Shown here: piece after piece, positions 5,619-37,094 of the stretch
Numbering within the stretch: position 1 is the first letter of the stretch
Layout: each line of letters starts with the position of its first letter
From: Hyphomicrobiaceae bacterium
GTDB lineage: Bacteria; Pseudomonadota; Alphaproteobacteria; Rhizobiales; Hyphomicrobiaceae
NCBI GenBank assembly: GCA_965223255.1
Contig: CBDCWA010000004.1
Coordinates: 1,611,514 to 1,675,513, forward strand
DNA length: 64,000 nt
Reading direction: 5' to 3'
Notes under the pieces: generated by a model
Told to the model about the DNA's origin: nothing
What the model saw: only the letters and a program-made list of their open reading frames with translations
Databases searched by the model: none
Position numbers and translations under genes: made by a program

Positions 5619-6305
5619 GTACCCGCCAAGAGCGATGCAAAGTAGTTTCAAAGCCGATCAGGCCAAGGGACCCTACCCTTGGCCTGCCAAAATGTCGGAG
5701 TAGATTTATTGTGGGTAGAGGAATCCGTGCCGGCGAAGCTGGTAAGAACGCGGGCTGCGACAAGCCTGCAATGGAGTTGAAGCAGCTGGACACAAAGCCA
5801 GTCAATTTATCGGATCAGGCGCAGTCGCAGATTAACTTTGTCCACTCTGACAAACAACAAACAAGTGGCACGGCGGACCAATGCGTGCCGTCGCATCAAC
5901 ACAAGCTGAGCATTTAATTCCCATGGTCAACGAGCGCTTTCGAAGGGCGCTTCCATTGTGTGGCGCAGGTGTCCGATTGCTTGATTGACCGGAGCCCCAT
6001 GCGTTCCATGGGTGTGATTCAACAGCTGACAACTAACATAGATAACATAGACGAATTTTTGCCTATTCGGCTCAAGTATCCGACATGCATGGGTTTTGCC
6101 AATTTGTCAGATGTAGGCCGCCCAACCTACGCATTGATAAATAATGTGAAAGTGCGGAGGTGGCCTGATATTTCCAAGTGCACCCAGACAAGATGGCAGC
6201 ATAGCTGCCACATCTGGCCGGTGTTGCTTGAGGCCGGAGTGGCTATTGTCTTGAATTTCCGGAAAAACCGAAGTTTTCCATTGCGAATCAATCAGTTGTA
6301 GCTTC

Positions 6306-26491: not shown

Positions 26492-27157
26492 ATGGCTGAG
26501 GCACTGACATTTTACACACATCCGATGTCGCGTGGGCGAACGGTGCGCTGGATGCTTGAGGAAATCGGGCAACCCTATGAAACCGAAGTGCTGACGTACG
26601 GCGGGACGATGAAGTCACCGGGGTACCTGGCCATCAATCCGATGGGAAAGGTTCCTGCGATCAAACATGGCAACACGGTCGTTACGGAGTGCGGCGCAAT
26701 CCTCGCATATCTAGCGGATGCATTCCCCGACGCCGGTTTGGCCCCAGCGATCAACGATCCGCGGCGTGGTGCGTACTATCGGTGGCTGTTCTTCGGTGCA
26801 GGTTGTGTTGAGGGGGCCTCTGGCGCTGCCGCCATCGGCATCAAGGAATTGAACGAGCGCCAGCGGGCGATGGCTGGCTTCGGCTCGCTGCAACAGGTCG
26901 TCGACACACTCGACCAAGCACTATCACGGCCTCAGCCCTATTTGACTGGCGACACGTTCACGGCTGCCGACCTATATATTGGGTCCCAGCTTGCTTGGCT
27001 AACCAGTTTCGGCGTGTTTGATAAGCGCGACTCGTTCGTAGCCTTCATAGATCGGGTCACGTCGCGCGAGGCCGGCAAGCGAGCCGACCGAATCGATGAG
27101 CAATTGCTGGCCCAAGACCCGGGGCTGATCCCTGAAGGCATGGGTGAGGGCCCTTAG
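26492..27157 (+). CDS. glutathione S-transferase family protein
   Basis: It has an N-terminal thioredoxin-like GST fold (LTFYTHPMSRG...GKVPAI) and a helical C-terminal domain. Confidence 0.75.
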   Translation: MAEALTFYTHPMSRGRTVRWMLEEIGQPYETEVLTYGGTMKSPGYLAINPMGKVPAIKHGNTVVTECGAILAYLADAFPDAGLAPAINDPRRGAYYRWLFFGAGCVEGASGAAAIGIKELNERQRAMAGFGSLQQVVDTLDQALSRPQPYLTGDTFTAADLYIGSQLAWLTSFGVFDKRDSFVAFIDRVTSREAGKRADRIDEQLLAQDPGLIPEGMGEGP

Positions 27158-27439
27158 CAGAGGCCGACCGCTTGAGAGGAATGCAGTCAGCGCGAACTGG
27201 CAGGCCAGATTTTGCCCGTTGGCGAACTCAAGCATGCGCTTGGCGATAACCGGTGCTGGGGGTGAATCGGAATGTTGATCGAAGAAGCGGACATAGGTCC
27301 GCTGTTGGTGGCTAAGCTGTCCCAAAACCTTCAGATCACGATGGTCGCCCAATGACCCAAAGGCGGAAACAAAATAGCTTGGCGCAGTCCCCGACAAAAT
27401 CATCCACGTCAGTGTTTCTGTGAAGGGGACGGGGTCTTT

Positions 27440-28300
27440 TCAAGCTGCCTTTCTCTTCGCATTGCCGTTCATCAGAACCTGGGTGGCTGCCGCTGTATTG
27501 GAAATAGGCACGTGATAGTTGCGATGCAGCTGGCTCACTTCGCCGGTGAGTGCTCCGCGCATCGCAAGCCAGTTGAGAAGTTCAACGCCCTGTGCGCCAG
27601 CTTCCTTTATCAGCATATGAGTCGAGTATTTCGCTAGCGCATCAGGATCATCAATGAGCTTGTCCATGCTCATCTTGTCGAATGTTTTGTTGACGAAACC
27701 AGCACGTGTTCCATCGAGCTGATGGGAAAGTCCACCGGTTCCAACAACTAGAATACGTTGGTCGGATGCGTAACTGTCGAGTGCCCGTCCGACACTGCGC
27801 CCAAGCGCAAGACATCGGCGTGGAGATGGCAACGGATGTTGTACGGTATTCACTGCAATCGGGACAACTTTGACCGGCCATTCTCCTCCGCCCGGCCACA
27901 TCAGCTGCATCGGAATGGTAGATGCATGGTCGACGAGCATTTCCTGGCACATGGTAATGTCGAACTCATCGCCGACGACCGAATTGATGATATGCCAGGA
28001 CAAATCGGGATCACCGAGGAACCTTCGGGCGACCGGGATACCCCAACCCTCGTCTTCGCTATGATATTCTGCAGCAGCCCCAATCGCGAAGGTTGGAAGT
28101 TTGTCCAGAAAGAAGTTCAAGCCATGGTCATTATAGAAGATCACCACGACATCAGGCTCGTTCTCGTTAAGCCAGCTGTGCACAAAATCGAAACCGGAAA
28201 AGAAAGGTTTCCAATAGGGATCATCCTGAAGACCATCAGCAATCGCTTTGCCGATGGATGGCACATGGGTGGTGCCGACTGCCCCAATGACATTGGCCAT
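27440..28300 (-). CDS. class III extradiol dioxygenase beta subunit (LigB-like, second copy)
   Basis: THVPSIG, VVIFYNDHG and FAIG motifs are present. It is collinear with the LigB copy at 35261..36103. Confidence 0.8.
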   Translation of the reverse strand: MANVIGAVGTTHVPSIGKAIADGLQDDPYWKPFFSGFDFVHSWLNENEPDVVVIFYNDHGLNFFLDKLPTFAIGAAAEYHSEDEGWGIPVARRFLGDPDLSWHIINSVVGDEFDITMCQEMLVDHASTIPMQLMWPGGGEWPVKVVPIAVNTVQHPLPSPRRCLALGRSVGRALDSYASDQRILVVGTGGLSHQLDGTRAGFVNKTFDKMSMDKLIDDPDALAKYSTHMLIKEAGAQGVELLNWLAMRGALTGEVSQLHRNYHVPISNTAAATQVLMNGNAKRKAA

Positions 28301-28301
28301 T

Positions 28302-28679
28302 CTAAGCCCTCCCCGCTTCCAGAAGCTTGGCCTTGAACTGGTCTACGCTCATACCCGTCTGCTGTGCGCCGATGTCCTGGACGTTGAGGCCGAATATCCC
28401 CGCCAGCTTGGCCAGATAGTAGATATTGCCGCCGGCCTCGATCATCCTGAGAACATTTCTGCTGCGAACGGCTTCGCGTTGTTCATCGGTCAGGCCAAAT
28501 TTTGCGCAATAGGCATCCTCATCATCGAGGAAGGCCTGACGATTTTCCGCGCTATTAAAAGAAAAGCACATCTTGTTAAGCGCATATCCTTTCTGCGCCT
28601 GGTCCCCATCGAAGAGGGTGGTGCCGGGTATCTGTTGATCTGCCATCTCGTCCATCCGTGTATTCCGATCTCCGGTCAT
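28302..28679 (-). CDS. extradiol dioxygenase alpha subunit (LigA-like, second copy)
   Basis: GYALNKMCFSF...GGNIYYLAKL parallels the LigA copy at 34867..35268. The start is uncertain (28679 or 28727). Confidence 0.75.
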   Translation of the reverse strand: MTGDRNTRMDEMADQQIPGTTLFDGDQAQKGYALNKMCFSFNSAENRQAFLDDEDAYCAKFGLTDEQREAVRSRNVLRMIEAGGNIYYLAKLAGIFGLNVQDIGAQQTGMSVDQFKAKLLEAGRA

Positions 28680-28808
28680 TAGTTCACACTCGGAAGATGT
28701 CGAAGGTGAAACCTTGATTTGTATCAACGCAACACAAAGTGTCAGATCCTTAGCTATCTAAGTATATTCAGCGGCGCGTCATGTTGACGTTCGGCGGCGC
28801 GTGCGCGT

Positions 28809-30452
28809 ATGTCGGAGGGTGGGGACTTGAACCAAGAAGTACTGATCGTCGGGGCAGGACCTGTTGGCCTGACGCTGGCAATCGATCTGGCCAAACGTGG
28901 CGTCAAATCTGTTCTTGTCGAGATGAAGGACGCCCCCCAGTTCCTTCCCAAGATGGAACGCTGCAACGCTCGCACGATGGAGATCTACCGCAGGCTCGGG
29001 CTTGCCGATCAGATCAGGAGGGCAGGCCTGCCGGCGGACATCCCGATGGATGTCTATGTTATTCTCTCAATGAGCGAGCCACCACTACTGCGCCTTGCTT
29101 ATCCTTCCGTGAACGAAGCGCGGGCGACGATCAAAGCCACCAACGATGGTAGCGAGCCGCTTGAGCCCTATCAGCTCATCTCCCAATACACGTTGGAGCC
29201 GCTCCTGAAAGCCGTGGCCGAAGGCATGTCCAATATCGACGTGCGTTTCGGATGCGAGCTGTTGTCGTTGGAACAGGACGAGTTAGGCGTAAGTGCCAAA
29301 GTGAGAAATACCGATCGATCAACGGAAACGTTGAGAGCTCTCTATCTTGTCGGGTGTGACGGTGGCGCCAGCACGGTGCGCAAGGAACTCGACATTACGC
29401 TTCGCGGAGAGTTCAACATCCTTGAACTCTACCAAGCGCTTTATCGCTGCGACGAGCTATTCGAGAAGATACCCATTGGGAATGGCCCTGGACCCGGTCG
29501 GCACTATCACGTTGCCGATGGTCAAAGCACGTTTCTCATCATGCAGGATTCCACTCGGCATTTCACGCTCCACTCGGTGGTCGAACGGCCTGAGGACATG
29601 AAAGCCATGTTCGAGAAAACCGTTGGCATCCCAATAAAATACGAGATGTTAGCCTCAAATCCCTGGCGGCAAAATTTGGTCGTCGCGGATCGCTATCAGC
29701 TCGGCCGGGTATTCCTAGCGGGCGATGCCGTTCATCTTGTTATTCCCACCGGTGGACTTGGTATGAACACCGGAGTAGGCGATGCTATCGATCTCGGCTG
29801 GAAGCTTGCTGCCACCATAAAGGGCTGGGGAGGCCCCCGTCTACTCGCCTCGTATGAGGTCGAACGCCGCCAGATCGGCGATCGCAATGTGGGTGCATCT
29901 CGATATGCTTCGTTGGGACGGCGTAAGTGGCGCGGGCAGTGGCGGCCCGAGATCCGAGAGCGAACCCCGCAAGGCAAATGGGTGCGAGAGAACCTGACCC
30001 GTGTGGCTGACGTCGAACAACGTAAAACGAACGAAATGATCGGCGCTGAACTCGGATATCGGTATTTTGGATCGCCCATTATTTGGGATGAACCTGGGGG
30101 GCCTGAGACGCTATATCGCGTTTATGAGCCAACGACATGGCCGGGCGCACGCCTGCCGCATGTCTGGCTGAACGATGGCTCGGCATTGCAGGATAAGATC
30201 GCCTATGAAGGCTACACCATCTTAAAGCTAGGCGATGCCTCCCACGATATCGGCGGCCTAGCCGAGGCCGTGCGCGGCACCGGGGCCCACTGCGAAATCC
30301 AAGACATACCCGACGAGGTGGCGCGTGACATATATGGCTATGACTACATACTGCTACGGCCTGACATGCATGTCGCCTGGCGGGGCAATGCGCCGCCGGA
30401 GGACGCGGCGCATGTGGCAGGTGTTGTGACCGGACATCGACCATTGTTTTGA
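28809..30452 (+). CDS. FAD-dependent aromatic monooxygenase (PheA/TfdB-type hydroxylase)
   Basis: It has the GAGPVGLTLAIDLAKRG dinucleotide fold, DG and GD motifs (GCDGGAS, FLAGDAVH) and a C-terminal thioredoxin-like domain. Length is 547 aa. Confidence 0.8.
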   Translation: MSEGGDLNQEVLIVGAGPVGLTLAIDLAKRGVKSVLVEMKDAPQFLPKMERCNARTMEIYRRLGLADQIRRAGLPADIPMDVYVILSMSEPPLLRLAYPSVNEARATIKATNDGSEPLEPYQLISQYTLEPLLKAVAEGMSNIDVRFGCELLSLEQDELGVSAKVRNTDRSTETLRALYLVGCDGGASTVRKELDITLRGEFNILELYQALYRCDELFEKIPIGNGPGPGRHYHVADGQSTFLIMQDSTRHFTLHSVVERPEDMKAMFEKTVGIPIKYEMLASNPWRQNLVVADRYQLGRVFLAGDAVHLVIPTGGLGMNTGVGDAIDLGWKLAATIKGWGGPRLLASYEVERRQIGDRNVGASRYASLGRRKWRGQWRPEIRERTPQGKWVRENLTRVADVEQRKTNEMIGAELGYRYFGSPIIWDEPGGPETLYRVYEPTTWPGARLPHVWLNDGSALQDKIAYEGYTILKLGDASHDIGGLAEAVRGTGAHCEIQDIPDEVARDIYGYDYILLRPDMHVAWRGNAPPEDAAHVAGVVTGHRPLF

Positions 30453-31131
30453 TGGTGTAGCGATGCCTCTTGGCTGCAGCATTATGAACACGTCGATTGC
30501 AATAAGAAATCGTGCGCCCGCCTAGCCCCGGAAGTTCAGACCGCTAACAGATTTGCGATGTTCACTCTCGGTCCTGGGTGTTACGAAACGCGCATACTGA
30601 TAACTCGGGCTACTTCATCCTCATTGCGAACGGCAACGACTTCACGGCCACAAAGCCTACAATCGAAGGCAAGGCTGGAGAGCGCTAGATCGCGCTCTGT
30701 TCTGCGATCCGGAGTTTTGTCCTAAATGACCAATCATGGCTTGGTCGCAGGGGCGGCTTCGGTCCGACAATCTTGCCTTTGCTCTTTGGCTCGCATCGAG
30801 CGGATTCTGGCCCAATTAGAATCTGATGGTTTTACGTACCATGTCTCGTTGTCTGAGAGACCGAGAAATTTGGCCTTCTGGCAGTTTATGCTCTTGAACT
30901 GATGGCTGTTTTTGAAAGTGCGGCTGCTGTTATGCACTCGCGATCCTGCTGGGACCACAAAGAGGGGAATATCAACTGGCCCTGTTCTATGCGAAACGGG
31001 ATAGAGACTTCATAAAGTCTCAAACTGGTTGCCGCATATAGGTAGAGAGACATAGCAACAATTATTTGCGAATTGTGCTCCTTGCGGCAACGAGTAGATT
31101 GCAAAGTTTGGAGTTACAAGCCTGCCCGCAC

Positions 31132-31207
31132 TGGCTGGGGAACCAGGAGTCGAACCTAGGCTGACGGAGTCAGAGTACTCTGCTCTAACCCTGTGTGCTA
31201 GTCGTTT
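31132..31207 (-). other. chimeric pseudo-tRNA (good T-arm and CCA end; 5' half cannot pair)
   Basis: The minus strand reads AAACGAC-TA-GCAC...GAGC-A-GAGTA-CTCTGAC-TCCGT-CAGC-CTAGG-TTCGACT-CCTGG-TTCCCCA-G-CCA. The acceptor and anticodon stems do not pair. Confidence 0.5.
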
Positions 31208-31221
31208 CGGAGAAGCCGAAG
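31197..31221. repeat. 25-bp direct repeat copy A (GCTAGTCGTTTCGGAGAAGCCGAAG)
   Basis: It is identical to 32989..33013. It contains the inverted motif TTCGG-N5-CCGAA. Confidence 0.9.
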
Positions 31222-31364
31222 AGCGTAGCATTTGTGGCGAGGCAAGCATCGGCGAGGCCAAAGAACTCGTTGCAGAAGGCATTCCTGTGGTGCCGCTCGC
31301 GCGCTTACCAGAAGATGAGAACTGGAACCGACGAGACAACCGCCTTTGCGCCTTTTGAACGTCC

Positions 31365-31400
31365 AAAAAAAATGGGGTTCGCACGTGGCGTGCGAACCCC
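31365..31400 (-). terminator. rho-independent terminator of the SPFH gene
   Basis: On the minus strand, GGGGTTCGCACG-CCA-CGTGCGAACCCC is followed by T8. Confidence 0.85.
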
Positions 31401-31427
31401 AATATCCTGACCAACCAAGCGGCCGGA

Positions 31428-32573
31428 TCAATCGTCCTTGTTGGCGAGCCGGTAGAGGTTTTTCAGCATCGCATCGAAGCCGCCGGCCCCATCGCCGGTG
31501 TGCAGATCGATCCGCCCGACTTTTTCCACCAGCTTCTCCAGCGCCTCCAGCTCCTTCAGACGCAACAGCAATGGATTATCTTCCATCAGCCGTGACGTGT
31601 TCAGCAAAGAGCGTGTTGCCGCAGTCTCTTCCTGGCGCCGGATGAGGTTGGCCTTGGCGACGCGCTCAGCCTCGACGACCTTGTTCAGGAGCTCGCGCAC
31701 TTCACCCGGCAGTATCACATCCTTGATACCGATCTCTCCCACTTCGACACCAAGCTCAACGGCCCGCTTGGTGACATAGGCCCGGATTTCATTGTCGATC
31801 GCATCACGCGCTGCAAGAATGTCGTCCAGCGTGCGCGTCGCCACCGCCTCACGCACCGCGAACTGAACCAGCCGGTAGAGCGTGTTGAGTACGTCACTCG
31901 ATGCCAGCACAGACTTTTCCGGATCGACGATCTTGGTGAAGGCCGTCAACGTGACACGGATCGCAACCCGATCCTTGGTCAGGATTTCCTGTGCTGTGAC
32001 CTCCAGCGGCAACGGACGCAGATCGACCTTCTCGATCCGAACCTTGCGCCCGATTGCCCAGAACGCATGTTGACCTGGCTTCAACCGTTCGACCAGATCG
32101 CCATCGATGAACAACAGACCCGCCTCGTATGCTTGCACCACATCATGCACAACATGCGGCACACGCTGGAGATCCAGCTTGTCGAGATGGCTTTTGGCCA
32201 CCCGCATGTTCTCGTCGGTGTTGATCCGCTCGACATCGACGTCATTGAGCGTCTTCCAAAACGCCCGCGTCGTATTTGCCATCACCACATGCGTCGGCGC
32301 CCCATCTATCGAGACGATCGCAACCTCGCCGGGACCAACCTGGACGATCTCGAAATTCTCTGCGGCAAGCGCCGGATGCGTCTTGGCAAGCAACATTGCC
32401 CGCTCGCTCGCGATCTCGGCCTGCGCCACCTTCAAGACCTCCACCGAATACCGGCGAAAAGGATCGAAAGCGGTAAAGCGGCCCGGCATGAGCAGCCGCA
32501 CCAATCGGCCGTCGCGAGACAGAAAAGCACGCTCATCGTCGCGAACAACCACGCAGAATTGTGACAACCGCAT
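31428..32573 (-). CDS. SPFH/band 7 (slipin-like) domain protein
   Basis: 381 aa. A central SPFH-type region (EVTAQEILTKDRVAIRVTL...) is followed by a coiled-coil tail (LLRLKELEALEKLVEKV). Confidence 0.7.
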   Translation of the reverse strand: MRLSQFCVVVRDDERAFLSRDGRLVRLLMPGRFTAFDPFRRYSVEVLKVAQAEIASERAMLLAKTHPALAAENFEIVQVGPGEVAIVSIDGAPTHVVMANTTRAFWKTLNDVDVERINTDENMRVAKSHLDKLDLQRVPHVVHDVVQAYEAGLLFIDGDLVERLKPGQHAFWAIGRKVRIEKVDLRPLPLEVTAQEILTKDRVAIRVTLTAFTKIVDPEKSVLASSDVLNTLYRLVQFAVREAVATRTLDDILAARDAIDNEIRAYVTKRAVELGVEVGEIGIKDVILPGEVRELLNKVVEAERVAKANLIRRQEETAATRSLLNTSRLMEDNPLLLRLKELEALEKLVEKVGRIDLHTGDGAGGFDAMLKNLYRLANKDD

Positions 32574-32926
32574 TTTATTTCACTCCCATTCATACGCCTG
32601 CGCAGCTGGCAGAACATACAAACTCAATTCAATTGGGGTCCACCGACCGCCTACCCATAAGGAGCCGTGGATCCGGATTTAAGCCCCGCAGCGCCATCCC
32701 CTGGCCCTGGTTGCGTCCATCCAGACCGAAGTCTGCCATGCCGGTGCCAGGACCGCGGATTTTGCCGCACAGGCGGTATCCATCCGGATACAAAACGTCT
32801 CAATATGTGCCCGTGTTGCTTTGCCCGCCGCCGAAGCTTTGGGGGCCACAAAACGGGCTGGCAGACAGCCGGCTTTCCCCTTGGATAGGCTCTCGCCTCA
32901 CTAGCAGTGTGCTTAACAGGCACGTG

Positions 32927-32999
32927 CAAACGACGTGGGAGTTGAACCCACGACCGCAGGATTAGTAGTCCTGTGCTCTACCCTCTGAGCTAGTCGTTT
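32927..32999 (-). tRNA. tRNA, canonical 73-nt cloverleaf, anticodon loop CU-ACU-AA, isotype undetermined, no encoded CCA
   Basis: Hand fold: AAACGAC/GTCGTTT acceptor, GCTC-AGAGGGTA-GAGC D-arm, CAGGA-CTACTAA-TCCTG anticodon arm, CGGTC variable loop, GTGGG-TTCAACT-CCCAC T-arm, discriminator G. Confidence 0.65.
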
Positions 33000-33013
33000 C
33001 GGAGAAGCCGAAG
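32989..33013. repeat. 25-bp direct repeat copy B
   Basis: It is identical to 31197..31221. It spans the first 11 nt of the tRNA plus 14 nt upstream. Confidence 0.9.
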
Positions 33014-33033
33014 GGATTCGAACCCTCCCAACC
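33000..33033 (-). other. orphan tRNA 3' fragment (T-arm + acceptor 3' strand) abutting the tRNA
   Basis: The minus strand reads GGGAGGGTTCGAATCCCTTCGGCTTCTCCG. No matching 5' half occurs within 100 nt. Confidence 0.45.
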
Positions 33034-33299
33034 GTTCCCGGTCAGCAGCCAGCTTAGCCTCGACCCCAAAAAACGCGGAACACGGATGAGCGCCGCAAAG
33101 CGGCCCGCGCCAGCCGGGTCTCAGCGAGCCCGGACACATGGCGTCCCTCAGGGCCGGGTGATCTAGCCAAAGATTCTGGCGTGATGACAGCGATTATTGG
33201 AAGAAAGTTTAACTTTGTGAAAATCGCCATCGCAATTGCGCCACAATTGGTGAGCACCGCGCCGAAGAACGTTCGATGCCAGCACTTTGAAAAAGATCA

Positions 33300-33344
33300 T
33301 TGACAGCGAGATGTACACACCCTATTAGTTTGGTTATCAAACTA
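33300..33344 (+). promoter_or_regulatory. putative sigma-70 promoter (TTGACA-N17-TATTAG) overlapped by palindrome TAGTTTG-N5-CAAACTA (candidate MarR operator)
   Basis: Both elements were read directly from the sequence. They lie 70-110 nt upstream of the MarR gene. Confidence 0.45.
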
Positions 33345-33412
33345 TATTGCAAACGCTAATCACACCAGCGCAAGTGTGCTGGGGCTAAGTCCCCATCGAG
33401 GGTTCCCAAGTT

Positions 33413-33946
33413 ATGGCGAAGTCAGGGCCCGATAGCATCGCTACAGCAGTGTCAGCCGAACAACGTGCCGACTCGCTTGGCCCAGGCGGGATCGACTATG
33501 ATGAACTGCCGACCTATCTCGGATATCTCATACGCCGCGCCCACTCGCACATCCAAACAGAATTCGAAAGCGATCTCGCCTATGTCGGCATGGCGACCAG
33601 CGCATTTGGTATCCTTACACTCATTCGCGCCAACCCCGGCATTACAGCAAATCAATTGGCGCAAGCCTCCCGTCTCGACAAATCAACCTTGAGCCCAATG
33701 ATCGTGAACCTCGAAACCGCCGGCCTCATAACGCGAAAACAGCGCACCTCTGACCGCCGCTATCAATCCCTGTTCCTCGCGAAAGGTGCCGAAGCCAGTT
33801 ATATGCGCTATCGCGATAAGATCCGCACATTTGAAAGAAAAGTTGCAAACCGCTTGACGCAAGGCGAACAATCGCAGCTCGCGAAACTCCTCACAAAACT
33901 GCAGGGATTAGAGACTCCCGCACCCGATCACCAGGAGGACATATAG
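33413..33946 (+). CDS. MarR-family transcriptional regulator
   Basis: It has a winged-helix region (LTLIRANPGITANQLAQASRLDKSTLSPMIVNLETAGLITRKQRTSDRR). Confidence 0.85.
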   Translation: MAKSGPDSIATAVSAEQRADSLGPGGIDYDELPTYLGYLIRRAHSHIQTEFESDLAYVGMATSAFGILTLIRANPGITANQLAQASRLDKSTLSPMIVNLETAGLITRKQRTSDRRYQSLFLAKGAEASYMRYRDKIRTFERKVANRLTQGEQSQLAKLLTKLQGLETPAPDHQEDI

Positions 33947-33950
33947 GCCC

Positions 33951-34823
33951 ATGGACCCCAATTGGATCCCCTTCCACCCAAACCCCTCGAAGCCAAAATT
34001 CAGGGTCCCGGCCGGTGCCGTCGACGCGCATTGTCACGTGTTCGGTCCCGCCGATATTTTCCCCTACGCACCAGAGCGCAAATACACACCGTGCGATGCG
34101 CCAAAAGAGAAGTTATTCGAATTGCGCGACTATTTGGGCTTCGAAAGAAATGTCATCGTTCAAGCGAGCTGCCACAGCAAAGACAATCGCGCACTGGTCG
34201 ATGCCCTGGAAAATTCCGATGGCAAGGCACGCGGAGTCGCCTTTATCGGTGAAGAGGTCAGCGATGACGAACTCAAGTGGATGCACGATGCCGGCGTACG
34301 CGGCATCCGCTTCAACTTTCTCAAACGCCTTGTCGACATCACACCGAGCGACGTGTTGGAGCGCATTGCCGCCCGCGTAATTCCACTCGGCTGGCATATC
34401 GTGATCTACTTTGAAATGCCCGATTTGCCGGAATTCGAGGACTTCTTCAAATCTTTGAAGACAACGGTTGTTGTCGACCATATGGGGACACCCGACATTA
34501 CAAAAGGTGTCGACCATCCAGAAAATCAGCGATTTCACAAACTGATGGAAACCCATACCAACTTCTGGGTGAAGGCAACCTGTCCCGAACGGCTGACTCG
34601 CGCCGGAGCACCCTACGACGACGTCGTCCCCTTCGGCCGCGCGTTGGTTGAGAAATTTCCCGATCGTGTGATCTGGGGCACTGATTGGCCCCACCCGAAT
34701 ATGAAAGTCGAAGCACCCAACGATGGCGAGCTCGTAGACTTCATCGAAAAGATTGCGCCAACACCGGAGCAGCAGCAGAAGCTCCTGGTCGACAACCCGA
34801 TGCGCCTATATTGGGCGGATTGA
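33951..34823 (+). CDS. ligI: amidohydrolase-2 family, 2-pyrone-4,6-dicarboxylate lactonase (LigI-like)
   Basis: It has an AVDAHCHVFGP N-terminus and a DWPHPN distal motif. It sits next to ligABC. Confidence 0.7.
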   Translation: MDPNWIPFHPNPSKPKFRVPAGAVDAHCHVFGPADIFPYAPERKYTPCDAPKEKLFELRDYLGFERNVIVQASCHSKDNRALVDALENSDGKARGVAFIGEEVSDDELKWMHDAGVRGIRFNFLKRLVDITPSDVLERIAARVIPLGWHIVIYFEMPDLPEFEDFFKSLKTTVVVDHMGTPDITKGVDHPENQRFHKLMETHTNFWVKATCPERLTRAGAPYDDVVPFGRALVEKFPDRVIWGTDWPHPNMKVEAPNDGELVDFIEKIAPTPEQQQKLLVDNPMRLYWAD

Positions 34824-34866
34824 TACCCGCTCTCAGGCCCAACCAAAAAACCAAAGGAGGTGGAGT

Positions 34867-36103
<1,237 letters not shown>

Positions 36104-36137
36104 GCACAATTTACGATCCCAATTTAGGAGGACGACG

Positions 36138-37094
36138 ATGAAAATCTGCGTGGCCGGTCAAGGGGCCTTTGGACAAAAGCATCTCGATGCGCTGGCCCGC
36201 ATCGATGAAGCCGAGGTAACATCACTTGTCGGCGGCAATCAGGATGCAACGGCGGAGGTGGCAAAAAAGTATGGCATCCCGCATTACACCGGCGATTTGT
36301 CGGAAGGCATCGCCCGCGCCGACGCCGTTATCTTGACCACACCGACGAAGATGCACCATTCGCAAGCTGTGCAAGTCATGCAGGCTGGCAAACATGTGTT
36401 GGTCGAAATCCCCGTTACAGATAGCGTCGCAGACGCTGAAGACCTGGTCAAGGTTCAGCAGCAAACCGGCGTTGTCGCAATGGGCGGACACGTTCGCCGC
36501 TTCAATCCGAGCCATCAATATGTGCACAAGAAGATAAAGGCAGGTGAGCTCAAAGTTCAGCAAATGGACGTGCAGACCTACTTCTTCCGCCGTAAGAACA
36601 TCAACGCCGCCGGCAATCCACGCAGCTGGACCGACCACCTTTTGTGGCATCACGCTGCCCACACCATTGACCTGTTTCAATATCAGGCCGGTGAAGAAAT
36701 TTCTGATTGCTATGCCGTCCAAGGCCCCATCCATCCAGAACTCAACATCGCAATGGACATGGGAATTGTCTGCAAGACGCCATCGGGTCCGATGTTGACA
36801 CTCTCGCTATCGTTCAACAACGACGGACCGCTCGGATCGTTCTTCCGTTACATCTGTGACAACGGCACCTACAAGGCCTATTACGACGACTTGAGCGATG
36901 GCAAAGACAACGTCATCGATCTTTCAGGAGTTGACGTCTCGATGGACGGTATTGAACTCGAAGATCGGGAGTTTATTGCAGCCATCAAGGAGAACCGGGA
37001 GCCGAACGCCAGCCTGAAACAGGTCCTCTCCTGCATGCATGTATTGGGTAAGCTGGAACAAATTATCGATCCCGAACGCAAGGCGCATGCCTAA
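36138..37094 (+). CDS. ligC: Gfo/Idh/MocA-family dehydrogenase, 4-carboxy-2-hydroxymuconate-6-semialdehyde dehydrogenase (LigC-like)
   Basis: AGGAGG RBS. The N-terminus MKICVAGQGAFGQKH forms a Rossmann fold. It sits directly after ligAB. Confidence 0.7.
   Translation: MKICVAGQGAFGQKHLDALARIDEAEVTSLVGGNQDATAEVAKKYGIPHYTGDLSEGIARADAVILTTPTKMHHSQAVQVMQAGKHVLVEIPVTDSVADAEDLVKVQQQTGVVAMGGHVRRFNPSHQYVHKKIKAGELKVQQMDVQTYFFRRKNINAAGNPRSWTDHLLWHHAAHTIDLFQYQAGEEISDCYAVQGPIHPELNIAMDMGIVCKTPSGPMLTLSLSFNNDGPLGSFFRYICDNGTYKAYYDDLSDGKDNVIDLSGVDVSMDGIELEDREFIAAIKENREPNASLKQVLSCMHVLGKLEQIIDPERKAHA

Follow-up and report, generated by a model that had tools for sequence, protein, structure and literature searches.

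What does a perfect 25-bp direct repeat signify when it brackets a gene for an SPFH (Band 7) protein and each of its copies runs into a tRNA-like sequence? The question is raised by a 64,000-nucleotide stretch of DNA from a Hyphomicrobiaceae bacterium (the window), in which the gene, here called slipin, lies between two copies of GCTAGTCGTTTCGGAGAAGCCGAAG. The original prediction took the arrangement to be the scar that a site-specific recombination event left at tRNA genes, the SPFH gene being the bracketed cargo and the palindrome TTCGG-N5-CCGAA a recombinase core. Its description of the repeat is accurate: the 25-mer is exact, occurs only twice in the window (copies A and B; Table 1) where dinucleotide shuffles expect none, and contains the inverted motif. 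We nevertheless consider a different explanation likely, namely that copy B is the junction between two tRNA-like units of a structured, slipin-linked RNA of the kind predicted under the name band 7-associated tRNA (abbreviated b7a-tRNA), and that copy A is a local, decayed relic of it. Every relevant feature of the locus is carried by the minus strand. Copy B is made up of the final 14 nt of the first unit (the end of the T stem, the 3' strand of the acceptor and UCCG) followed by the initial 11 nt of the second.

The slipin gene is preceded by a conserved structured RNA of approximately 560 nt, which consists of a 5' three-way junction, tRNA-like unit 1, the abutting tRNA-like unit 2 and a rod of approximately 230 nt. 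These domains were delineated with RNAalifold on 53 non-redundant full leaders, together with pair counts targeted at individual parts. The 5' domain is formed by a closing helix and two hairpins, CCGGGCUC..GAG.CCCGG and GCGCG-CCGC-UUU-GCGG; 91.7% of its cells are paired, compared with 37–48% in slid controls, nine of the ten pairs of the closing helix have changed on both sides, and none of 500 shuffles attained the observed value. The rod is closed by a helix of 10+4 bp (32873–32858 with 32657–32642) and comprises 54 pairs, with 87% of cells paired; its double-change cells number 408, where shuffles average 151 (maximum 179) and slid controls give 94–141. Within this otherwise covarying domain, all aligned leaders share a near-invariant block, which reads GGAUACCGCC in the window (about 32770–32781, minus strand) and GCGGAUACCGCC in most relatives, and may be a binding site for a protein or for a tRNA elbow. 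The two tRNA-like units abut throughout the family, the spacing between them being −2 to +4 nt. The four-domain RNA is absent from Rfam 15, and a search of positions 29000–35000 against Rfam at E ≤ 10 gave tRNA as the sole significant family.

Transcription of the RNA is suggested to start from a sigma-70-like promoter candidate, which is supported by a −35/−10-like pattern at the equivalent place in the family consensus. A sigma-54 promoter was also considered for the element CTGGCGC...TTTGC and was ruled out, the spacing being 8 rather than 5 nt and the element covarying as RNA. The beginning of the rod in the window (32856–32870, minus strand) is a weak terminator-like hairpin, GGCUG-UCUGC-CAGCC, with a U-rich tail, where relatives have GGGAAGC-CGGCC-GCUUCCC; the hairpin might let an RNA-only transcript form in this genome.

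Table 1. Features of the slipin locus, in the numbering of the window.
Feature	Position	Strand	Basis
Sigma-70-like promoter candidate, TTCACA-17-AATAAT	33193..33221	-	Upstream of the structured RNA; consensus scan, 10/12 matches
5' three-way-junction domain	33065..33152	-	RNAalifold coordinates, pair counts
tRNA-like unit 1, reduced	33000..33061	-	Acceptor GAGGCUA/CGGCUUC with G3·U70, tail UCCG
25-mer repeat, copy B	32989..33013	.	Exact sequence match, shuffle comparison
tRNA-like unit 2, band-7-associated tRNA type; full cloverleaf, loop CUACUAA	32926..32999	-	ARAGORN, Rfam, covariation
Rod-like RNA domain, ~230 nt	32642..32873	-	RNAalifold on 53 leaders
Slipin (SPFH/Band 7) gene, 381 aa	31428..32573	-	Pfam Band_7, 3.5e-27
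Intrinsic terminator of the slipin transcript, strong, 13-bp stem + T8	31365..31401	-	13-bp stem, T8
25-mer repeat, copy A	31197..31221	.	Exact sequence match, shuffle comparison
Chimeric pseudo-tRNA, 76 nt	31132..31207	-	nt 1–33 like unit 2; nt 34–76 like tRNA-Gln(CUG), including TTCCCCA-G-CCA

Unit 2 is the sequence into which copy B runs, and the original prediction was right that it can fold as a tRNA. It is the only tRNA-type gene that ARAGORN calls over the full 64 kb (anticodon ACU), the Rfam tRNA model gives it 66.5 bits, and its fold z-score is −2.49. Amongst 54 sequences, the anticodon stem has 21–28 double changes per pair, and the T stem and the inner acceptor stem likewise covary. 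The ‘anticodon’ is not conserved among orthologues, as that of a decoding tRNA would be; it drifts, with 19 different triplets in 52 copies (the commonest, GTT for Asn, in 15), and the identities assigned by ARAGORN differ widely between loci. No CCA is encoded. Because the cloverleaf is kept while the triplet drifts and the CCA is lacking, unit 2 appears to be a mimic of tRNA shape and not a decoder; judged from these comparisons, it is retained for its shape and travels with a soluble SPFH protein. A covariance model, R1, which was built from alphaproteobacterial junction and unit 2 sequences only, gives 104.6 bits on unit 2 of the window and, beyond sites A and B, scores nothing else there. 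The same positions also attract an Rfam ‘Plastid-ycf2’ match on the plus strand (25 bits, with a gathering score of 65.7), which is an artefact from the antisense of unit 2; this match and those to YrlA, mascRNA and tmRNA were set aside as weak artefacts of tRNA-likeness.

Unit 1 had been described as an orphan tRNA 3' fragment preceding copy B. It is not an orphan, since it has a 5' acceptor strand of its own, GAGGCUA (33061–33055), which pairs with CGGCUUC, and relatives have the same element as a conserved, reduced tRNA-like unit. The T arm is GAGGG-UUCGAAU-CCCUU and, in the window, a GGAA-capped hairpin takes the place of the anticodon arm. The shape of the unit varies among relatives, from a full cloverleaf in some to a microhelix only in others. 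In L010, L022, L023, L063 and L118 (handles with L denote the loci compared), unit 1 is a tetraloop-capped microhelix with an NCCA-like tail, for example GGAGCC-GCAA-GGCUCC-UCCA, and in L118 the third pair of the microhelix is still G·U. Of 53 sequences across the family, 42 have G·U at pair 3:70, with pairs 2:71, 4:69, 5:68 and 6:67 covarying freely, and 33 end in an NCCA tail (UCCA in 20 and ACCA in 10). G3·U70 together with CCA is the established alanine identity set, common to tRNA-Ala and transfer-messenger RNA (tmRNA). We infer that RNase P, by cleaving unit 2, matures unit 1, which would then be recognized by the alanyl-tRNA synthetase, AlaRS. A permuted tRNA and a two-piece tmRNA were considered as well and rejected, given that the acceptor strands are in the normal order and no model matches.

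The association of RNA and slipin was examined in relatives gathered by two independent routes, one through the protein and the other through the RNA leader. The protein route gave seven loci (L001–L003 and L116–L119; slipin identity 52–75%), and the RNA is present in all of them: each has a gene-free stretch 5' of slipin with the same conserved sequence blocks, 682–1187 nt long in L003 and L116–L119, the five for which genes were called. ARAGORN makes one or two tRNA-like calls on the slipin strand in six of the seven; L117 has no such call, yet fits a relaxed leader pattern. For the RNA route, a 24-base pattern taken from the 5' block matched 112 metagenome loci. Wherever at least approximately 650 nt of downstream sequence is present, a slipin homologue (38–76% identity) starts 435–670 nt downstream on the same strand, with four exceptions. 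Two of these, L035 (32–1887) and L040 (2955–4902), have the RNA and no slipin within 1.8–1.9 kb; in L040 the RNA ends early, after the GGGAAGCCGG block, and both may be decayed or rearranged loci. In L085 (7783–10132), a gene of ~190 aa on the opposite strand separates the complete RNA from slipin, and L038 (9733–12825) has ~1.4 kb inserted between the two, so that the RNA is not always a contiguous 5' untranslated region (UTR). The genes flanking the pair vary among L003 and L116–L119; with the RNA and slipin constant and their neighbours variable, the two make up a self-contained pair. Viral contigs contain no match to the leader pattern. A megablast search of the locus against plasmids likewise gave no match, and a distant blastn search with the RNA against plasmids gave just one tRNA-type match of 58 nt.

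The slipin protein begins with ~185 residues in three beta-rich modules, which are followed by the SPFH domain and a long helix; on reading the sequence by eye, no hydrophobic membrane segment was noticed. The best solved relative is stomatin and the AlphaFold model has a pLDDT (predicted local distance difference test) of 78. NCBIfam gives only sub-threshold matches to HflK/C, and PADLOC finds no defence family at the locus.

Evidence for the nature of the pair comes from more distant homologues. In annotated plasmid and chromid records, tblastn finds full-length slipin homologues (residues 8–373, 33–39% identity) in Burkholderia, Photobacterium, Citrobacter and E. coli, and several of them stand in RNA-repair loci, in which the identities of RtcR and RtcB were confirmed by Pfam. 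In Burkholderia, rtcR is divergent from a tRNA-like sequence and slipin. In Photobacterium, the order is rtcR, a sigma-54-like TGGCAC-N5-TTGA (found by eye), two tandem tRNA-like sequences, slipin and RtcB. R1 recognizes the RNA of Photobacterium (74.8 bits) and that of Burkholderia (65.2 bits), and both matches take in the T arm of unit 1. In E. coli and Citrobacter, only the T-arm hairpin (UGGGUUCGAUUCCCA) remains 5' of a pair formed by slipin and the RlaP nucleotidyltransferase; the hairpin is at 5801–5815 in the record of E. coli STEC639 (L120) and at 5802–5816 in that of Citrobacter freundii (L121). The slipin–RlaP pair of Citrobacter has rtcR divergently upstream, and the E. coli record is without rtcR there.

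These loci lead to the b7a-tRNA, which was predicted by Burroughs and Aravind in 2016, as reported by Wang...Wolin 2018 (10.1101/312249). An SPFH protein is also found within the rtc locus of P. aeruginosa, where it is PaFlo8 (PMC13086221). The window has the tRNA-like cloverleaf, the same-strand adjoining Band-7 gene, and the homology to the RNA and protein of RtcB/RtcR loci; its 40 large open reading frames include neither RtcB nor RtcR. On these grounds, which are those of sequence comparison, we regard the element as a member of the predicted b7a-tRNA kind, unlinked to Rtc genes, with four domains and an alanine-like first unit. Inasmuch as the prediction can be followed through the citing paper, what is shared is a gene for a tRNA-shaped non-coding RNA that adjoins, and is co-oriented with, a Band-7 protein gene. 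The differences, within the same limit, are that the pair here stands alone amid aromatic-catabolism genes, with no RtcB, RtcA, RtcR or RlaP nearby; that its promoter is apparently sigma-70-like rather than sigma-54; that the mimic is one of four domains of an RNA of ~560 nt; and that there is a second unit, with G3·U70 and NCCA. The searchable literature gave no description of the element in its four-domain form, the 2016 prediction being represented there by the citing paper, and nothing that directly connects slipin or SPFH proteins with a tRNA-like sequence; the link emerged by way of RtcR and band-7.

A different account of the same conservation is that the RNA acts only in cis, as a 5' UTR in which RNase P or RNase E processing, or stability signals, set the level of slipin mRNA, with neither a role in trans or in a ribonucleoprotein nor any aminoacylation. 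It would explain why, in nearly all loci, the RNA keeps to the strand of slipin, stands in a fixed order with it and lies close to the ATG; moreover, the window has no terminator between the RNA and the slipin open reading frame (ORF), and the Photobacterium units sit between the sigma-54-like motif and slipin. The intervening gene of L085 and the insertion of L038, however, are not what such a leader should tolerate, and the Shine–Dalgarno sequence lies in an unconserved, unstructured linker, ~70 nt beyond the rod. Nor is selection for G3·U70 and NCCA easily squared with a mere processing signal, for which ~560 nt of covarying structure would also be large. We therefore think a purely cis-acting leader rather unlikely, although it is the alternative that survives best.

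Copy A, to which we now turn, lies in a sequence that was described at the outset as a chimera, and so it proves to be. Its 5' 48 nt match the region of copy B (blastn, 31174–31221 with 32967–33013, 89.6%: 25 perfect positions, then 19 of 23), and its 3' ~45 nt find their best match in a genuine tRNA-Gln(CUG) gene in L008; one part gives way to the other where both read ACU, on the 5' side of the anticodon loop. The product forms no cloverleaf on folding (z −0.94). Rfam tRNA has no match to it even at E ≤ 10, and R1 gives 37.3 bits, the acceptor, D and anticodon pairs being broken. Site A lies past the slipin terminator, with no evident promoter, and neither a tRNA-Gln 5' half nor a TGGGGAA partner was found in the window. 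In 55 relatives there is no A-like element; tRNA calls within 1.5 kb downstream of slipin occur in two of the 55 (Lys CTT and Arg ACG anticodons). We read site A as a decayed, non-functional relic found in this genome only, and as the scar of a rearrangement, in which the unit 1/unit 2 junction, copied over 48 nt, would have become joined at ACU to a tRNA-Gln(CUG) gene's 3' half. The likely route, as far as a single genome can indicate, would be recombination of an illegitimate or microhomology-mediated kind, or else a duplication with a later deletion. The tRNA-Gln(CUG) gene of L008 (2416–2489 in oriented coordinates, on the opposite strand) is ~200 nt upstream of the RNA element of that locus, which is probably a coincidence.

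Of the recombination scar that was originally proposed, the hybrid nature of site A and its origin in a past DNA rearrangement thus stand; the site-specific mechanism and the role of the SPFH gene as cargo do not. Under that mechanism the 25-mers would be attL and attR, formed at tRNA genes, with the SPFH segment of 1.79 kb as a present or former excisable cassette. In its favour are the perfection of the 25-bp direct repeats and the palindrome inside them, and site A does join two tRNA-type sequences at the anticodon loop, a classic crossover location of tRNA-targeting integrases. The palindrome, however, is built from the 3' strand of the unit 1 acceptor, the CCG tail and the A-rich start of unit 2, and a comparable one is present in only three of 54 relatives. 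The repeat corresponds to the 5' 11 nt of unit 2 with 14 nt upstream and not to the 3' part of a tRNA, and the loops CUACUAA (B) and CUCUGAC (Gln) differ where the overlap region would need identity. It had been noted that no integrase could be recognized; the 40 large ORFs of the window indeed contain neither an integrase nor a transposase, and the 975-nt gap beside site A (30453–31427) has short ORFs only, the one that was scanned, of 134 aa, belonging to no Pfam family. Nor is the bracketed segment variably present. In relatives with slipins at 38–76% identity to that of the window, the tRNA-like units and slipin keep constant company, and their constancy in more than 100 loci, together with the seven of seven reached through the protein, indicates that the segment between the repeats is ancestral rather than inserted; none of the 55 relatives has an A-like element. 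The likeness to tRNA-integrated genomic islands extends to direct repeats that overlap tRNA-type sequences and to one end that is a tRNA fragment, whereas here the repeat is at the 5' end, an integrase is lacking and the bracketed DNA is a conserved partner gene. A cassette of this kind is very improbable.

Two further explanations have still less to commend them. Site A could have been born at the RNA level, a 5' precursor fragment cut after U33 having been ligated to nucleotides 34–76 of tRNA-Gln and copied into DNA, which would suit the U33/N34 position of the switch, the CCA end of the Gln part and the tie between this protein family and RtcB ligase operons in other clades; we give it hardly any credence, as neither a reverse transcriptase nor RtcB was found in the window, microhomology at ACU in DNA is a simpler account of the junction, and an encoded CCA is unremarkable, being often present in tRNA genes of these bacteria, that of L008 included. 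That the units are ordinary tRNA genes or pseudogenes (e.g. a tRNA-Ala-like sequence and a tRNA-Asn), syntenic with slipin by chance, is about as implausible, for the Rfam score of unit 2 and the prevalence of GTT are set against 19 triplets carried on intact covarying stems, the missing CCA of unit 2, a unit 1 that is often a tetraloop-capped stem or microhelix, the position of both units between two further covarying RNA domains, and a linkage that spans Alpha-, Beta- and Gammaproteobacteria.

Several observations weigh against the reading that we prefer, in which copy B is a unit junction of a b7a-type RNA and copy A its relic. RtcB, RtcR, RtcA, RlaP and Rsr are not among the 40 large ORFs of the window, so that the link to repair rests on homologues of 33–39% identity; the alphaproteobacterial loci L003 and L116–L119 also contain none of the five. 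The b7a-tRNA itself has never been validated (10.1101/312249). Part of the 5' domain is fixed by construction, the metagenome leaders having been found with a pattern taken from it. With regard to the alanine-like character of unit 1, the window has the tail CCG and not CCA (the terminal A is unencoded) and has lost the D arm; in Photobacterium, 3:70 is U-A and a CCA tail is missing, and Burkholderia apparently has G-C at 3:70 (a less secure reading), with the tail ACC. Lastly, the four differences between copies A and B all fall in the 23 positions outside the 25-mer, which is mildly non-random (p ~0.03, from a simple model and our own arithmetic); 25 perfect bases next to four changes in 23 are not explained by simple decay.

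If the b7a-type reading is accepted, a scheme for the pair can be proposed. The RNA and slipin would be co-transcribed, and RNase P would cut at the 5' end of unit 2, leaving unit 1 with an NCC(A) end. The alphaproteobacterial unit 1, by virtue of G3·U70 and NCCA, would probably be recognized, and perhaps charged, by AlaRS. The tRNA-shaped RNA could then serve, with an oligomer of slipin, as a cofactor or decoy in the handling of damaged tRNA-like RNA.

Such a pair would parallel that of Y RNA with Ro60/Rsr. The YrlA and YrlB RNAs, in rsr-yrlBA-rtcBA operons, are similarly tRNA-mimicking non-coding RNAs whose genes adjoin that of a protein forming rings or cages, in settings of RNA repair, and the proposed role as cofactor or tether is alike. 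The resemblance does not extend to the molecules: the RNA of the window scores 18.7 bits on Rfam YrlA, against a gathering score of 69; YrlA is a permuted T/D module closed by the Ro-binding stem, whereas the units here are complete, in-order cloverleafs; and no TROVE/Rsr gene is present among the scanned ORFs of the window. With the tRNA-like domain of tmRNA, unit 1 shares the lack of an anticodon; in the family, G·U at 3:70 is seen in 42 of 53 sequences and NCCA in 33 of 53, whereas the window combines G·U with CCG. The acceptor strands of unit 1, unlike those of tmRNA, are contiguous in a single unit of ~60–75 nt. ARAGORN makes no tmRNA call, the Rfam tmRNA model gives 9.7 bits on 13 nt only, and smpB is not among the genes examined near the RNA (the window, L003 and L116–L119). 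The processing envisaged has a counterpart in MALAT1–mascRNA, in which a tRNA-like element cut by RNase P sets the 3' end of the upstream RNA, as unit 2 would for the NCC(A) of unit 1; here the setting is bacterial, the upstream product is itself tRNA-like and the processing is proposed from sequence.

A bolder version of the scheme, which we consider distinctly doubtful, holds that the b7a-tRNA of Alphaproteobacteria has grown into an autonomous RNA of ~560 nt, that its unit 1 is a true alanine acceptor held by a soluble, cage-forming SPFH protein, and that the two make up a new, RtcB-independent ribonucleoprotein that senses, or acts as a decoy for, tRNA-directed damage. The logic of such a particle may lie between those of tmRNA and of Ro with Y RNA, the NCCA end being supplied by RNase P cleavage of unit 2.

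The slipin module of the window is surrounded by aromatic-ring cleavage genes (26492–30452 and 33413–37094), and its neighbours include two LigB-type dioxygenases, an amidohydrolase, a MarR regulator, an FAD monooxygenase and a GST. In L003, L117 and L119 the module is flanked directly by FAA-hydrolase and Glu_synthase genes; in the window these are 6–8 kb away, and this displacement suggests a local insertion or rearrangement around the module.

For the understanding of the locus, a false lead falls away, in that neither is the SPFH gene cargo that moves nor is the tRNA-like sequence an att site. The analysis also ties the locus to a nine-year-old, untested prediction, that SPFH/Band-7 proteins and a cognate tRNA-like RNA take part in RNA repair, and provides that prediction with testable detail, namely an RNA with four covarying domains, selection for the alanine pair and NCCA, a drifting anticodon and, in Alphaproteobacteria, independence of Rtc operons. 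If true, the roles known for this family, which is otherwise viewed as one of membrane scaffolds, would be broadened by a soluble SPFH member that has an RNA partner of its own.

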